The position numbers and the translations under genes are program-made. From NCBI GenBank assembly GCA_037574385.1, contig GCA_037574385.1_4529.1: a DNA stretch of 64,000 nt; one strand, given 5' to 3'. The stretch is from a phage. Position 1 is the first letter of the stretch; each line of letters begins with the position of its first letter. The notes beneath the pieces were generated by a model. It was not told the DNA's origin. It did no database searches and saw nothing but the letters and a program-made list of their open reading frames with translations. This document shows positions 8,989 to 42,480 of the stretch, in pieces.

Positions 8989-9399
8989 TTATTCCTTAAA
9001 ATGTGTTTTCAACATTTGATACAAAGACCATGCCTGGTCGTTATTTTCGATAGTAATCGTCATCACCGGAAATTCGGTCAATTCATCAAGTTCTTCAGAG
9101 TCTTGCTCTTCAGACGCTTGATATGGATTTCCAACTTCATCAAAAAACTCTGCTTCACTAGTAGAGAGCCAGATAAAGTTTTCATCAAGAATATCACCAC
9201 CAGTTGCGTATCCAACCATGCCAGTAGATGTCACAATTTTAGTAGGTCGACCAAGATGGTCAACATCTAATACTTTAAATGGTTCCATGCCAAGACGTCG
9301 TGCATAAATCCCATTATCAGTGTGGTTTTTAATAAACTCTTCTTGGACACGTTTATCTTTAAATTGGTACCATGAGTTAACGCGGAATTTATTAGCCAT
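8989..9399 (-). CDS. hypothetical protein (136 aa)
   Basis: Track ORF trimmed to ATG at 9399 that overlaps the upstream stop (TAATG). Confidence 0.5.
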
Positions 9400-9626
9400 T
9401 AGTAAGTTTCCTTCCAATAAGTTGTACCATTTTCAGTGATTTCACGGAAGATACCATAGATAGGCATTTCATCACCGAGTTTTTCGTAAACGTAAACCAC
9501 TTCAGTGTAGCATAAAAATTCAGTCCAGTTTTTCTGTACAACAACTAAATCAGGATTAAACAGAACATCTTCAAACTCATCGATGTTTGAATCAGTAGTT
9601 ACGTTTTTAATGATTTGACGTTTCAT
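9399..9626 (-). CDS. hypothetical protein (75 aa)
   Basis: Internal ATG (MKRQ...) with AAGAGGAG SD downstream of early promoter 9655-9683. Confidence 0.5.
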
Positions 9627-9654
9627 AATATTCTCCTCTTGTTTTGATAGGTCT

Positions 9655-9683
9655 ATAGTATCATAGACCATAGTTGTTGTACA
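9655..9683 (-). promoter_or_regulatory. early promoter (TGTACA-N17-TACTAT); GGTCTAT/ATAGACC inverted repeat around -10
   Basis: Minus strand TGTACAACAACTATGGTCTATGATACTATAGACCTATC. Confidence 0.5.
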
Positions 9684-10208
9684 TCATTTTAGCAAAATAA
9701 AATCAACTTGTTCTGCCAATGAACGTCTGAACATTAATTGACAACTTCCGAGGATGAAATCAGGTGCTTCATAGACCGCGATGTAGTATCCTTTAGCTTT
9801 CAAGAGTTCAACATCTACCTGGTCATCAAACCATGCATAAACCGCGTCAACACTTTCAAATCCAAAATAGAACCCTTGAGCCCAATCTTCACTCAATTCA
9901 AATGTGTGCTCAATTCTATAGTATCTTAAGATATTTTGTTCAAGGAGTTTATCTTCATTTACTGTAGGACGATTAGGGACATTATAGTTGTCGCCGTGAT
10001 GGTAGAAATTACCTGAGAGTATTCCATGTTTATCAAGGAACTCCCATGTTTCTTCAGAGTTGTCGGTGCCCGACCAACCGTAAGGTGAGCGAGGTTCTTT
10101 ATTCCAAGAGGTTTCCCAAATTCTGACGGCTTTACCGTCTTCGATGGCAATTCCTGGTAATGATTCACGTTGAGTACAAAAACTACGTTCTACGCGGTAA
10201 ACTAACAT
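9684..10208 (-). CDS. hypothetical protein (174 aa)
   Basis: ORF with AGAGGAGAA SD; early promoter 10235-10263. Confidence 0.55.
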   Translation of the reverse strand: MLVYRVERSFCTQRESLPGIAIEDGKAVRIWETSWNKEPRSPYGWSGTDNSEETWEFLDKHGILSGNFYHHGDNYNVPNRPTVNEDKLLEQNILRYYRIEHTFELSEDWAQGFYFGFESVDAVYAWFDDQVDVELLKAKGYYIAVYEAPDFILGSCQLMFRRSLAEQVDFILLK

Positions 10209-10234
10209 ATTATTCTCCTCTGGTTGATACGGTT

Positions 10235-10263
10235 ATAATATCAAAACCAGAGGAGAAGTAAAC
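10235..10263 (-). promoter_or_regulatory. early promoter (GTTTAC-N17-TATTAT) with spacer complementary to downstream SD
   Basis: Minus strand GTTTACTTCTCCTCTGGTTTTGATATTAT; spacer TTCTCCTCTGGTT pairs with AACCAGAGGAGAA at the RBS. Confidence 0.5.
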
Positions 10264-10267
10264 AACT

Positions 10268-10687
10268 TTATGCGAAAGCAGCCGGGCTATATTTTTTAAT
10301 TTGGAATTCAGGAACTACCATGAACTGACCAGCGAAAACGATGTTATAAAGCTTAACACCATCTTCTACCCAACGGTCGCTAATAAATCCGGCGATTTGC
10401 TTAGTTTTCCATGGCGTTCCATCGGTTGCCGCAGCAATAGTGAATTCGTGGTCTTTTTCAACAGAAACTGATCTGCATAGTCCCCATTTGAACGCTTTTT
10501 CTTCTGGTTCAATGAATTGGCTTGAGACGTAGCCAATGTTGCCATCAGCATCACGAACTTTAACTTGATGTGGACTAAAGAGTCCACAACTTACAGAAAG
10601 AACTTCAACCAACTTCCCAGCAACTTTAGAGCGAGAAGCAACAGATACATATACGTAATCACCAATAGAGAGATTTGCAATATTCAT
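10268..10687 (-). CDS. hypothetical protein, paralog family member (139 aa)
   Basis: C-terminal FISDRWVEDGVKLYNIVFAGQF shared with the two upstream genes; AAGGAA SD. Confidence 0.55.
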   Translation of the reverse strand: MNIANLSIGDYVYVSVASRSKVAGKLVEVLSVSCGLFSPHQVKVRDADGNIGYVSSQFIEPEEKAFKWGLCRSVSVEKDHEFTIAAATDGTPWKTKQIAGFISDRWVEDGVKLYNIVFAGQFMVVPEFQIKKYSPAAFA

Positions 10688-10696
10688 AATAATTCC

Positions 10697-11182
10697 TTAA
10701 GCTTTACGAGGAGACACATAACGAGTGATTTCGGATTCTTTAACAACTCTGAAGTCACCTAAGAATACGATATTGTATAACTTTTCACCATCTTCAACCC
10801 ATTGGTCACTAATGAAGCCACACATAGTATCAGTTTTGCTTGGATAACCGTATTCATCGATGAAGTCAAATTCTTTATCAGTCTGGAATTCAACGCCTTT
10901 GCAAAGGGCCCATTTGAACTGTACATTATGCTCTGTGGATTCAACTTTTTCTCTTGAAGCAAAAGCACTACTCACAGGCGTTTCCAAGAACTTTGCACGA
11001 ACATAAGCAAATTTGGTTTCCTGTGTCCCAAAACTAGGAATAATACGAACCTTTACCTCAGAATCTTCATCTTTAACGCCTTCTTTAAGTTGAATACTTA
11101 CAACTTCGACCAATTTTCCTGCGGCTTTAGAACGAGATTTGTTAGATACGCGAACGATTTCACCAATAATACCAAGATTCAT
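10697..11182 (-). CDS. hypothetical protein, paralog family member (161 aa)
   Basis: Track ORF trimmed to ATG (MNLGIIGE...); shares SRSKAAGKLVEV and FISDQWVEDGEKLYNIVF with 10268-10687. Confidence 0.55.
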   Translation of the reverse strand: MNLGIIGEIVRVSNKSRSKAAGKLVEVVSIQLKEGVKDEDSEVKVRIIPSFGTQETKFAYVRAKFLETPVSSAFASREKVESTEHNVQFKWALCKGVEFQTDKEFDFIDEYGYPSKTDTMCGFISDQWVEDGEKLYNIVFLGDFRVVKESEITRYVSPRKA

Positions 11183-11212
11183 AATTTCTCTCTCTTTGTT
11201 TAAATTGAATTC

Positions 11213-11241
11213 ATTATACTCCATCCATCCTTGGATGTACA
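11213..11241 (-). promoter_or_regulatory. early promoter (TGTACA-N17-TATAAT), CCAAGGATGG-spacer family
   Basis: Minus strand TGTACATCCAAGGATGGATGGAGTATAAT. Confidence 0.5.
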
Positions 11242-11244
11242 ACA

Positions 11245-11739
11245 TTAATTAAGGATATTAACCACAGCACTACGTGGAACTACACTAAAATCACCTGCAT
11301 GAACAACGTTCAGAAGTTCAACACCGTCTTCAATCCACTGGTCAGTTACCCATCCATTTACTGGACCTGCGAAAGGACGTCGAATTGAAACATATTTACA
11401 CAGCAAATCAGTAGGCTCAATAGGCTTAATCAGAGTACCGTACATACAAGCGATATCCATATCAATACAGATGTCTTTAACGGGTTCTACTTCTTCAATC
11501 AACAGTTCAAAGTCTGTGCTTGGAAGGGCGGTAGTGGAAATTGTACCATATGAATTTTTAATTTCTAAGAATAACCAAGGGCCTTCAGCTTGTTTGATGA
11601 AGTTAACAATAGTGAAACTATTGCCTTGAGTGGCACCTAAAATTTCACAAAACTTTTCGTAAGCTCGCACTGAAGCACTGTACCAGTTGATTTGTTTTTC
11701 GTCTTTCAGGATGTAAGTAGCCGTAGTATTGATATTCAT
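11245..11739 (-). CDS. hypothetical protein, paralog family member (164 aa)
   Basis: C-terminal WVTDQWIEDGVELLNVVHAGDF related to the two downstream genes; early promoter 11771-11799. Confidence 0.55.
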   Translation of the reverse strand: MNINTTATYILKDEKQINWYSASVRAYEKFCEILGATQGNSFTIVNFIKQAEGPWLFLEIKNSYGTISTTALPSTDFELLIEEVEPVKDICIDMDIACMYGTLIKPIEPTDLLCKYVSIRRPFAGPVNGWVTDQWIEDGVELLNVVHAGDFSVVPRSAVVNILN

Positions 11740-11770
11740 AATGTTTTTCCTGTTTGGTTAAGATAGAAAG

Positions 11771-11799
11771 ATTATACTCCAACCATCCTTGGTTGTAAA
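11771..11799 (-). promoter_or_regulatory. early promoter (GTTTACA-N17-TATAAT), CCAAGGATGG-spacer family
   Basis: Minus strand GTTTACAACCAAGGATGGTTGGAGTATAAT; identical core at 52583-52611 and 53601-53629. Confidence 0.55.
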
Positions 11800-11805
11800 C
11801 TGATT

Positions 11806-12483
11806 TTATCGCTGTTTTACACTTAACGGGTCAGGATTCTCAGGGACATCTTCAAGGCCAAGCGCATAACGCTGAGCATATTTTAACATCAAAATATCTT
11901 TAGCACAATCATGAATACTATCATGGGCAATGAATCCTTTTAGCGTACCCATAGGTAATGGACACATACTTAATCCTCGCGTCAACGAGTAAGCTTCGAT
12001 TGCCGTACGAATATCGCGTTGAGCCCAGAATTTAACCGGTTCTAATTTATCAGTATCAATATCTGGTTCAAGAACACCTTCATCACGATAGAGGTCACGA
12101 ATCAAATCGACCAAGATCGGGAAGTCAAAGCTCATACCACGGCACCACATCTGTGATTTCCATTGGTCAACTTTATTAGCTCGACAATAATCTAAAAAGA
12201 TTTTAATGCCTTCAAGCGTAGTGACATCGTCTTCAGACGGAGCCAGGTTTTTACGTGCTTCTGCTGATTGTTCTTTCCACCATTTCATAGTGGATTTAGC
12301 GAAAACTCGCTTCCCTTTTTGAGAAGCTAAATTAAATTTAATTCGCTTACCTCGTTGAACAAGTTCTTCAAATGTTTCAACAACTTCAGGGTCCGAATTA
12401 TATGCAATAACCGCAAGGTCAATAACAGCCGCTTTTGATGTATTGCCGAATGTTTCAAAATCTATAATAACATCAGTGCTCAT
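11806..12483 (-). CDS. dexA: exonuclease A (DnaQ/DEDD-family 3'-5' exonuclease)
   Basis: 225 aa; DEDD motif IIDFETFG at N-terminus; position immediately downstream of dda as in T4. Confidence 0.8.
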   Translation of the reverse strand: MSTDVIIDFETFGNTSKAAVIDLAVIAYNSDPEVVETFEELVQRGKRIKFNLASQKGKRVFAKSTMKWWKEQSAEARKNLAPSEDDVTTLEGIKIFLDYCRANKVDQWKSQMWCRGMSFDFPILVDLIRDLYRDEGVLEPDIDTDKLEPVKFWAQRDIRTAIEAYSLTRGLSMCPLPMGTLKGFIAHDSIHDCAKDILMLKYAQRYALGLEDVPENPDPLSVKQR

Positions 12484-12492
12484 AATTTTCTC

Positions 12493-13806
12493 TCAAATAA
12501 AATGGACGTCAAAACGACCACGAGTCGTGCCGACATACAATAACTGTTTAGCTAATTCTGAATCGGCATAATGGATACAAGGTGTATAAACAAAGGCTGT
12601 GTCAACAGACATACCCTGAGCCTTATGGAAGGTTGATACTGGTAGTGCCTTCACCTTAGTGAACATACGTTTAGCATCCCAGAATTCGCTCCATGGAGCT
12701 TTACCACCTTTATTCCAGAATTTGTATGTTTCTGCAGTCTTAGCCAAAAACAAATTGAATTTATAAAGCTCTTCTTCAGAAGAAATAACCTTTATATCTT
12801 CGCGGATGTATTCTTCATCATCCCCATATGTTTCTACTGTAAGATTCCAGTATCGTATCATATACTCGCCAGAAACACCACGTGCTTTAACGAATGTAGA
12901 CGTTTCTACAGCATCTCGAATACGAACGAATTGCCCGTTATTGAAAAGCATTTCGGTCATATTTTTGCCATCTAGCTTATATGTCTTAGTAAATGGCTCT
13001 TGTAGAACAATGACCTCGTCTTTAATAAATGGCTTTTCTGTTTCAAGAAGTTTTCGGCGAATAATTGAATTCAACTTATCCACCGACTTATTTGTGAATG
13101 CCATCATTCGATTTTCGAAAAGGTCTTCAGGAGTTTTAACGACGTTAAAATAGTTCATCATATACGATTTAAGGTCTGTATATCCATGAACACCGTGCCC
13201 ATCAACTACTTTATCATAAATCCATTTGCCATTACGAATATCGGTCGCAACATCAATAATTGGTGCATTGCTACGTTTAACTTCTGTAAGGTTGCATTGC
13301 ACGAAGTCTTTGTGAGTGAAGAAAGGACTTAGATACGCAGTTGATTCGCCGGGGTCCACTGGACGAATCTGACATCGGTCACCAATTCCAATTACTGTAC
13401 ACCATTTAGGGATACTAGCTAACATTATTTTAAACAGAGAACGGTCACACATTGACGCTTCATCAAATAACAGTACACGACACAAGGCTAAGTCGGGAAC
13501 CTTTTTCTGTTCAAATAATACGTTTTCTTCGTATGTAGTTGGGTTGATTTTAAGAATGCTATGAATAGTCGATGCTTCTTGTCCAGCAAGTTTGCTTAGA
13601 ACCTTTTTAGCAGCGTGTGTTGGTGCTGCTAAAATAATACCTGATTCTCCAGAAGAAATAAGGGCTTCAACGATGAATCTAGTAAGGGTTGTTTTACCTG
13701 TACCCGCAGGTCCATTAATAGTTACGTGATGTTTCTTTTCTTTAATAGCTTTCATAACAACGTTGAAGGCGTTTTTCTGGCCTTCAGTCAAGTCATCAAA
13801 TGTCAT
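12493..13806 (-). CDS. dda: Dda DNA helicase (SF1B)
   Basis: 437 aa; MTFDDLTEGQKNAFN..., Walker A GPAGTGKTT; near-identical stretches to recalled T4 Dda. Confidence 0.92.
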   Translation of the reverse strand: MTFDDLTEGQKNAFNVVMKAIKEKKHHVTINGPAGTGKTTLTRFIVEALISSGESGIILAAPTHAAKKVLSKLAGQEASTIHSILKINPTTYEENVLFEQKKVPDLALCRVLLFDEASMCDRSLFKIMLASIPKWCTVIGIGDRCQIRPVDPGESTAYLSPFFTHKDFVQCNLTEVKRSNAPIIDVATDIRNGKWIYDKVVDGHGVHGYTDLKSYMMNYFNVVKTPEDLFENRMMAFTNKSVDKLNSIIRRKLLETEKPFIKDEVIVLQEPFTKTYKLDGKNMTEMLFNNGQFVRIRDAVETSTFVKARGVSGEYMIRYWNLTVETYGDDEEYIREDIKVISSEEELYKFNLFLAKTAETYKFWNKGGKAPWSEFWDAKRMFTKVKALPVSTFHKAQGMSVDTAFVYTPCIHYADSELAKQLLYVGTTRGRFDVHFI

Positions 13807-41041: not shown

Positions 41042-41276
41042 CCTCGATACATGCTTCAGCCATTTTAAGAATAGAGCCAGGAGTATCGTTGTCCATTATA
41101 TTAAAGCTAAATTCAATAGCCCAGTCGGTGCAGACATGAACTGCTTTAACTTCATTGCCTTCAACGCGTAATGGCTCAATCCAATACTTGATGGTGTTCT
41201 CGAATCCATCATCATCTTTAACGTCTATTTCAACTTCAAGCCCGAGCCCAGCATTGTTAAATTCATCTAAAGTCAT
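41019..41276 (-). CDS. hypothetical protein (85 aa)
   Basis: ATGA-coupled to gene 47. Confidence 0.45.
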   Translation of the reverse strand: MTLDEFNNAGLGLEVEIDVKDDDGFENTIKYWIEPLRVEGNEVKAVHVCTDWAIEFSFNIMDNDTPGSILKMAEACIEDAYNDED

Positions 41277-42292
41277 TGTGTTGCCTCAATATAAAGTTCG
41301 TTGGAATATTTGACCAGCGCTTCTCTGTCTTCGTCTGAGATATCTGGAATCGCGTCAATATATTCTTTAATGATATCTTGAAGTGATTTAATCTCGATTT
41401 CCTGGTCGTCATCAGATTCAACACTGTTATCAACTTTAGAAACCATACGAAGAGAGTGAACTACTTTTTCAAGTTCAGATTCAAACTTAGTCAACTCTGA
41501 ATCAATTTCTGATACTATAACACGTACGGCTAGATTAGTATAATCAGAATAATTGATTTTGCCTTTAAACGGATAAGTGATTCGTCGATGCCATGTCGTT
41601 TCATTGGGAATAAATTCCATACGTTCAACGTCGGTGTCAAATACCCAGAATCCGCGAGGATCATTCTCGTCACCTGCAGTAAGGGTCCATGGTGTCCCAA
41701 TATATTTGACGTTAGCAGCTTCAGAGATTGTGTGGAAGTGGCCGGACCAGACTTGTTTATAGGTCTTTAAGAAATCAGGTTCAAGCCCATGAGACTTCAT
41801 TCCTTTATAGAAATAAAAGCCGTTCAGTTCCCAGTGCCCAACACAATACGCAGCAGAAGAAGTCTTGATATGCTCTAAGATTTCACCTGTATTTTCTTCA
41901 CACATCCATGGAACGATATCAATCAGACATCCGTCAAAATCTACAGTAGTTGGATGTTCATAAATAGTAAAGTTTTCAAATTGAGTTAACAATTCAGAAA
42001 CAGTGTTAGGTGTTATTGTATTCTTAAACGCCATGTCATGGTTTCCTATCGTGACATGAACGTGAATGCCTGCCTTAGAAATCATATCAACTATTTCACG
42101 ATTGAATTCCATCGTACGATGTGTAATTGCTTTACGGACGTCGAACCAATCACCGTACTGAATCCAAGTTTTAATCCCGTGTTTCTTAGAGTATTCAATT
42201 GCTTGACGAATACCATCACGTTGAATATCTTGGACCCATGGGTCGTCCTGTTTAACGCCGATATGGAAGTCACCTAAATGTAAAATTTTCAT
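41273..42292 (-). CDS. 47: recombination endonuclease subunit gp47 (Mre11/SbcD-like phosphoesterase)
   Basis: Track ORF (TTG) trimmed to ATG giving 339 aa; MKILHLGDFH, GNHD, GHWE phosphoesterase motifs; matches recalled T4 gp47. Confidence 0.9.
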   Translation of the reverse strand: MKILHLGDFHIGVKQDDPWVQDIQRDGIRQAIEYSKKHGIKTWIQYGDWFDVRKAITHRTMEFNREIVDMISKAGIHVHVTIGNHDMAFKNTITPNTVSELLTQFENFTIYEHPTTVDFDGCLIDIVPWMCEENTGEILEHIKTSSAAYCVGHWELNGFYFYKGMKSHGLEPDFLKTYKQVWSGHFHTISEAANVKYIGTPWTLTAGDENDPRGFWVFDTDVERMEFIPNETTWHRRITYPFKGKINYSDYTNLAVRVIVSEIDSELTKFESELEKVVHSLRMVSKVDNSVESDDDQEIEIKSLQDIIKEYIDAIPDISDEDREALVKYSNELYIEATQ

Positions 42293-42480
42293 AAGTCTAA
42301 CGCCGTTATCGCAATGCAAAATAAAACCACAGAAATTAATCCATCTGGGGTACTAAAGAAACCTATCCAACACGCCCTAGTGAATAGATAGAAGGCTAAT
42401 ATCAATATAGTCACACCTAAAAATATAATCATATGTTTTCCTCATTAGTTGGTTCATTTTATCATCCAGAATATAAAGCA

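Follow-up and report, generated by a model that had tools for sequence, protein, structure and literature searches.

The three adjacent genes at positions 10,268-11,739 of the window (the whole 64,000-nt stretch of phage DNA analysed here) most probably represent the motB.1 - motB - motB-like cluster of an RB69-type (Mosigvirus) T-even phage, and we assign a probability of approximately 0.8 to this reading in full, i.e. including a MotB-like role of the two motB products. The cluster is already known, and what was encountered here is a correct rediscovery of the published MotB/MotB.1 family in its RB69-type arrangement. The genes, their neighbours and the associated elements are as follows:

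12493-13806, minus strand: dda
11806-12483, minus strand: dexA
11771-11799, minus strand: predicted early-type sigma-70 promoter ahead of w164, TTTACA-17-TATAAT, 11/12 consensus matches
11245-11739, minus strand: w164, 164 aa, full-length MotB.1 homologue with LSm-like N-terminal barrel, low-confidence linker and MotB-family C-terminal domain
11248-11424, minus strand: shared C-terminal domain in w164 (residues ~106-164), core GWVTDQWIEDGVELLNVVHAGDFSVVPRS, domain HMM E 3.5e-35
11213-11241, minus strand: predicted early-type sigma-70 promoter ahead of w161, TGTACA-17-TATAAT, 10/12 consensus matches
10697-11182, minus strand: w161, 161 aa, MotB orthologue; its start is an internal ATG of a 182-aa ORF
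10700-10906, minus strand: shared C-terminal domain in w161 (residues ~93-161), domain HMM E 1.8e-24
10694-10698, minus strand: w139 Shine-Dalgarno sequence AAGGA, read from the sequence, overlapping the w161 stop codon
10268-10687, minus strand: w139, 139 aa, second, shorter MotB paralogue with the same two domains as w161
10271-10492, minus strand: shared C-terminal domain in w139 (residues ~66-139), domain HMM E 1.1e-27
9684-10208, minus strand: w174, 174 aa, MotB.2 homologue, 34% identical to T4 MotB.2, PHROG 1106
9399-9671, minus strand: cef

Judged by its sequence, the window belongs to Mosigvirus, the RB69-like group of T-even phages, and the 3.3-kb region was 98% identical to Escherichia phage phiE142, Shigella phages ESh27 and Shf125875 and their relatives. 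The cluster occupies the non-essential early region between dexA and cef, with the w164 gene located immediately 5' of motB (w161). The first-pass annotation had reported three adjacent ORFs of 139, 161 and 164 aa, which are present with these sizes and at these positions, and it was also correct in describing an early, non-essential region with a local paralogous family. However, it placed the array upstream of dexA; since the minus strand encodes every gene in this region, the array is in fact transcriptionally downstream of it.

The gene order (dexA, motB.1, motB, 139-aa MotB-like, motB.2, cef) is identical to that of RB69, where the corresponding genes RB69p010-p013 include those annotated as motB.1, motB and MotB-like. 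w139 is 93% identical to its RB69 counterpart, whereas the motB allele of the window is only 76% identical. The local expansion is therefore not an unrecognised one, having been named as a motB.1/motB/motB-like cluster in RB69 and catalogued for Shf125875. T4 has the order dexA, motB.2, motB.1, motB, cef, without a second motB. In T4, RB10 and Sf23, motB.2 stands beside dexA, while its homologue in the window lies between the second motB and cef, the order of the genes having been rearranged locally between Mosigvirus and Tequatrovirus. It should be added that MotB.2 is unrelated to MotB in sequence, its name reflecting position only, and that w174 had no Pfam match.

Each of the three genes had been thought to have its own early promoter or Shine-Dalgarno sequence, and this holds, with promoters before w164 and w161 and a Shine-Dalgarno sequence only for w139. 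No promoter-like site was found between w161 and w139 on the minus strand, and the intergenic gap comprises 9 nt. As w139 is thus without a promoter of its own, has its Shine-Dalgarno sequence overlapping the w161 stop codon and follows after 9 nt, it is probably co-transcribed with w161; it is possibly also translationally coupled to it.

The similarity between the three proteins, examined by pairwise alignment and profile comparison as the first-pass annotation had advised, was far beyond chance. In BLASTP searches against a tiny local database, w139 aligned with w161 over the whole length (44% identity over 154 aa, E 2e-29), while the matches of w164 were confined to the C-terminal end, with 55% identity over 29 aa to w139 (E 1e-9) and 44% over 36 aa to w161 (E 2e-9). 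All three proteins exceeded the gathering threshold of 25 bits for the Pfam family PF17613 (motB), scoring 182 bits (w161, full length), 78.9 bits (w139) and 35.3 bits (w164, residues 84-159, C-terminal part only). Matches to the MotB-like PHROG 1671 had E-values of 3e-70 for w161, 9.5e-51 for w139 and 7e-15 for w164, the latter matching PHROG 2333 with E 1.3e-82. Profile-profile comparison with hhalign related the C-terminal domains of MotB and MotB.1 with a probability of 99.3% (E 1.3e-20), whereas their N-terminal domains were unrelated (probability 0.3%). The local family is therefore real, but an expansion by full-length paralogues applies to w161 and w139 only, w164 sharing just the C-terminal ~55-60 aa.

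The sequence motifs follow the same division. SRSK[A/V]AGKLVEV, noted at first pass in two of the three proteins, occurs in w161 and w139 only. The C-terminal motif given for all three is exact in w161 and w139, but w164 reads NVVHAGDF, with H in place of F, and fits only when V[F/H] is allowed instead of VF. What is common to all three is the core DQW[VI]EDGxxLxN[IV]V, situated within a barrel of ~55-60 aa, and the alignment of this shared domain contains invariant or near-invariant columns. With the domain HMM, only these three ORFs were matched in the six-frame translation of the 64-kb window; a weak match to ORF 41276-42352 (E 0.01) was judged to be due to chance. Sequence-detectable duplication of the two N-terminal domains, or of the two halves of each protein, was also considered and rejected (hhalign N vs N and each N vs C-terminal domains, probability ≤2.8%).

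AF2 models of w164 and w161, built on alignments of 61 and 67 sequences, had mean pLDDT values of 78.7 and 78.4, respectively, and each comprised two beta-rich domains and a low-confidence linker (residues 86-104 in w164; residues 70-85, pLDDT <50, in w161). w161 is thus modelled with a basic KOW/SH3-like N-terminal domain that carries SRSKAAGKLVEV and, after a disordered linker, a C-terminal barrel that is acidic. The N-terminal domain of w164 was modelled as a helix followed by five strands. Isoelectric points were 9.45 for the N-terminal and 4.53 for the C-terminal domain of w161, 4.65 for the C-terminal domain of w164, 4.5 for w164 overall and 6.5 for the N-terminal domain of w139, which is therefore not basic. 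Searches of PDB sequences returned no meaningful match for w161 (best E 0.91) or w164 (best E 0.04). An OB-fold (cold-shock-like) was proposed for the C-terminal domain in 2021. SH3-like small beta-barrels (Tudor/BAH/PWWP 'Royal' domains, KOW, EF-P domain I) may also be counted among the nearest known relatives in structure.

Patterson-West et al. (2021) sorted 102 MotB homologues into four categories and described the shared C-terminal domain: Category 1 is MotB, Categories 2 and 4 carry the MotB.1-type C-terminal domain with different N-terminal domains, and Category 3 is a 29-aa peptide of RB69 (PMC7827196). In the same work, an origin of motB and motB.1 by duplication was proposed, two motB copies, one motB.1 and the peptide were recorded for RB69, and the MotB of Shf125875 was listed together with its 139-aa neighbour (Table S4; PMC7827196). 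The combination characteristic of Category 1, a KOW-like N-terminal domain with SRSKxAGK and the conserved C-terminal domain, is seen by sequence in w161 and w139, and not in w164. The latter has a distinct LSm-like N-terminal domain and a MotB-type C-terminal domain and adjoins motB, and is hence a MotB.1 (Category 2) protein. Kim et al. (2025) modelled the MotB.1 N-terminal domain as a barrel of the LSm-like type and related it to GoF and Frd.2 (PMC12152347), and the helix and five strands of w164 are as described there.

As compared with the T4 proteins, w161 falls in the same length class as MotB, is 58% identical to it, shares with it the N-terminal motif SRSKAAGKLVEV and the C-terminal core, and lies in the same dexA...cef neighbourhood, likewise with an early promoter. 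At 38% identity, w139 repeats the two-domain layout of T4 MotB but is missing ~22 linker residues (the greater part of the linker) and some of an N-terminal hairpin; its N-terminal domain is also not basic. w164 shares 37% identity with T4 MotB.1 over residues 3-136, and its sequence agrees fully (100% identity) with that of the Shf125875 protein.

Purifying selection acts on all three genes. Pairwise Nei-Gojobori dN/dS values against orthologues of RB69, RB10, JK45, APCEc01, Sf23, phi25-307, ESh27 and three IMG/VR contigs were 0.09-0.12 for w164, 0.06-0.28 for w161 and 0.14-0.28 for w139; the locus search of viral contigs gave three loci, and the comparative loci were taken from GenBank phage records. 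Orthologues of the w139 type with at least 80% identity were found in ~207 of the 771 MotB-containing phage records, separated by a sharp gap from ordinary MotB at <60%. This 139-aa type was monophyletic in a neighbour-joining tree, with within-group identity of 84-99% (mean 91%) and 40-50% identity to typical MotB, and in all ten loci checked its gene begins 9 nt after the motB stop. As this copy is present in Mosigvirus and also in some Tequatrovirus genomes (RB10, Sf23, JK45), w139 is the product of an old tandem duplication, or of one exchanged between the genera.

The gene content of the region is mosaic, motB.1 being absent from JK45 and phi25-307 and motB.2 also from phi25-307. In addition, the motB allele of the window was 73-78% identical to motB of other Mosigvirus/Tequatrovirus relatives (RB69, APCEc01, JK45; dS 0.6-1.0), whereas the flanking w164 and w139 were 84-98% identical to their counterparts in those same phages, a difference that points to mosaic allele replacement within the cluster.

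An exhaustive HMMER search with the combined profile across 1.84 billion representatives yielded only 32 clusters at E ≤0.001, and the domain was not seen beyond a handful of small, phage-like proteins. One of these clusters, P0258, an 842-aa Ig-like repeat protein, was judged spurious. The most distant members were small and paired an N-terminal domain of classical KOW-like type with a recognisable W-x-E-[DE]-G...N-V-V-F core. Since identity was 72-86% between MotB.1-type C-terminal domains of proteins whose N-terminal domains, of 145-250 aa, are unrelated, the domains have evidently been shuffled between proteins. Among individual cases, a MotB-type N-terminal domain is linked to a MotB.1-type C-terminal domain in P0245, and P0155 and P0175, both from Logan contigs, combine a MotB N-terminal domain with a 139-aa-type C-terminal domain, the switch occurring before or inside the DQWVEDG core. 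Such junctions are those expected from unequal recombination between tandem copies; P0155 and P0175 could also be assembly chimeras.

Furthermore, irregularities were noted in motB.1 of two reference records. In T4 NC_000866 (2143-2400, minus strand; cf. window 11245-11345) the gene has one extra G, reading ATTGGAAGATGG where ATTGAAGATGG is expected (context CAATGGATTGGAAGATGG), which terminates MotB.1 after 119 aa, midway through the conserved C-terminal core; the next frame continues with ...EDGVELLNVVHAGEYSVVPRSAVVAILN. The 13 other near-identical records listed (11 named T4 or T4T, including KJ477684-6 and MT984581, plus RB55 and RB59) are shorter by one base, and MotB.1 is annotated as 143 aa long in T4T. 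In RB69 NC_004928 (3877-4373, minus strand; cf. window 11245-11739), two 1-nt insertions relative to the window, cgtccGtttcg and gacggTtgttg, split motB.1 into a 132-aa ORF and the 29-aa ORF RB69p012, which is the Category 3 peptide. As this split accounts for the peptide, RB69p012 is probably a sequencing error or a pseudogene fragment and not a separate gene. Published work on the 119-aa (13.8 kDa) T4 MotB.1 and on the Category 3 peptide may thus rest on annotation artefacts, and experiments with the 13.8 kDa MotB.1 may have used a truncated form. In the phage studied here all three genes are intact; unlike the 119-aa T4 reference protein, the 143-aa product of other T4 records and the split gene of RB69, w164 has 164 aa with a complete C-terminal domain and so offers an example of complete MotB.1.

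As to function, T4 MotB is toxic on expression, shows no sequence specificity in its binding to DNA, whether modified or unmodified, co-purifies with both H-NS and StpA and doubles the burst size, and its knockdown barely alters the T4 transcriptome (PMC6070864). It also changes the DNase I footprint of H-NS and up-regulates host genes, about a third of which are H-NS-repressed (PMC7827196). By homology, w161 would most likely be a phage nucleoid-associated protein that coats DNA without sequence specificity, associates with H-NS/StpA-bound DNA and alters the H-NS footprint, and that may thereby relieve H-NS silencing and lead to a modestly higher burst size. Compaction of the nucleoid by T4 MotB has reportedly also been proposed (Son et al. 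2021, NAR 49:9229). That w161 shares the biochemical activity of T4 MotB is, given the 58% identity, a reasonably probable assumption. w139 may be regarded as a sub- or neo-functionalised copy within the same activity class, its activity being probably related but diverged, and its DNA binding may differ from that of MotB because its N-terminal domain is not basic.

The isoelectric points (9.45 vs 4.5-4.65) suggest a division of labour, in which the basic N-terminal domain would be the DNA-binding part and the acidic shared C-terminal domain would serve in protein interaction or oligomerisation. Charge and fold data taken together suggest a protein-interaction barrel rather than a DNA binder for the shared domain. 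One may go further and suppose, although we consider it rather unlikely, that this acidic and highly conserved barrel is a common docking or oligomerisation module (e.g. for H-NS/StpA or for one another) that gathers the three N-terminal nucleic-acid-binding barrels into one mixed nucleoprotein complex. If so, the cluster would constitute a phage 'chromatin toolkit', in which recombination at the conserved 3' core reshuffles both the N-terminal domains and the number of copies, and the chimeras P0155, P0175 and P0245 would be traces of this shuffling.

Barrels of the KOW, LSm-like and EF-P/eIF5A-like types typically bind RNA and ribosomes, which raises the question of whether the proteins, especially the MotB.1-like w164, act on RNA or translation and not on the nucleoid. 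We hold this to be improbable: T4 MotB is demonstrably DNA-binding and co-purifies with H-NS, wild-type MotB.1 was without effect when assayed with an RNA reporter (PMC12152347), and w164 is acidic overall. The first-pass annotation had in turn suggested host takeover or anti-defence. The former fits the published properties of T4 MotB (PMC6070864, PMC7827196), while no evidence was found for the latter, and T4 deleted for motB.1 showed no phenotype (PMC12152347). An anti-defence locus, whose copies diversify to inhibit particular bacterial immune systems, would agree with the early, non-essential and variable location and with the mosaic gene content of relatives (motB.1 missing in JK45 and phi25-307, motB.2 moved), and the silencing of foreign DNA by H-NS may be regarded as a form of defence in its own right (discussed in PMC7827196). 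Nevertheless, the papers on the MotB family cited here give no link to a defence system, and dN/dS of 0.1-0.25 together with the 84-99% identity of w139 orthologues is unlike an arms-race gene, which makes this explanation very improbable.

The loss of motB.1 in some relatives, its apparent frameshift in the T4 and RB69 reference records and the lack of a phenotype in the T4 motB.1 deletion could also be taken to mean that one or both of w139 and w164 are non-functional duplicates in decay. The dN/dS values of the two genes (0.09-0.28) contradict this; moreover, both are intact here and conserved in ~150-200 genomes, and the T4 frameshift is absent from the 13 other records. We find such decay hardly credible.

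Several features of the non-coding sequence should also be mentioned. A 48-nt direct repeat with 77% identity (11192-11239 and 11750-11797) spans both early promoters and the leaders of w161 and w164, its copies having a common CCAAGGATGG(A/T)TGGAGTATAAT block. Just 5' of the motB.2 homologue, whose start lies at 10208, positions 10213-10257 of the minus strand contain a perfect inverted repeat of 13 bp that encloses a 19-nt loop. As RNA it has a folding energy of -24.2 kcal/mol (z -5.9), and its 3' arm holds the GAGGAG Shine-Dalgarno sequence of the downstream gene; a promoter-like TTTACT-16-TATTAT (10262->10235) has its -10 element in the hairpin loop. Transcripts reading through from upstream would hide the ribosome-binding site in this hairpin, and those begun inside it would expose the site, an arrangement that resembles known translational control in T4. 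Finally, the cef ORF comprises 90 aa from the ATG at 9671, but as the RB69 cef has 75 aa and a GAGGAG Shine-Dalgarno sequence precedes the ATG at 9626, the true start of cef is probably at 9626.
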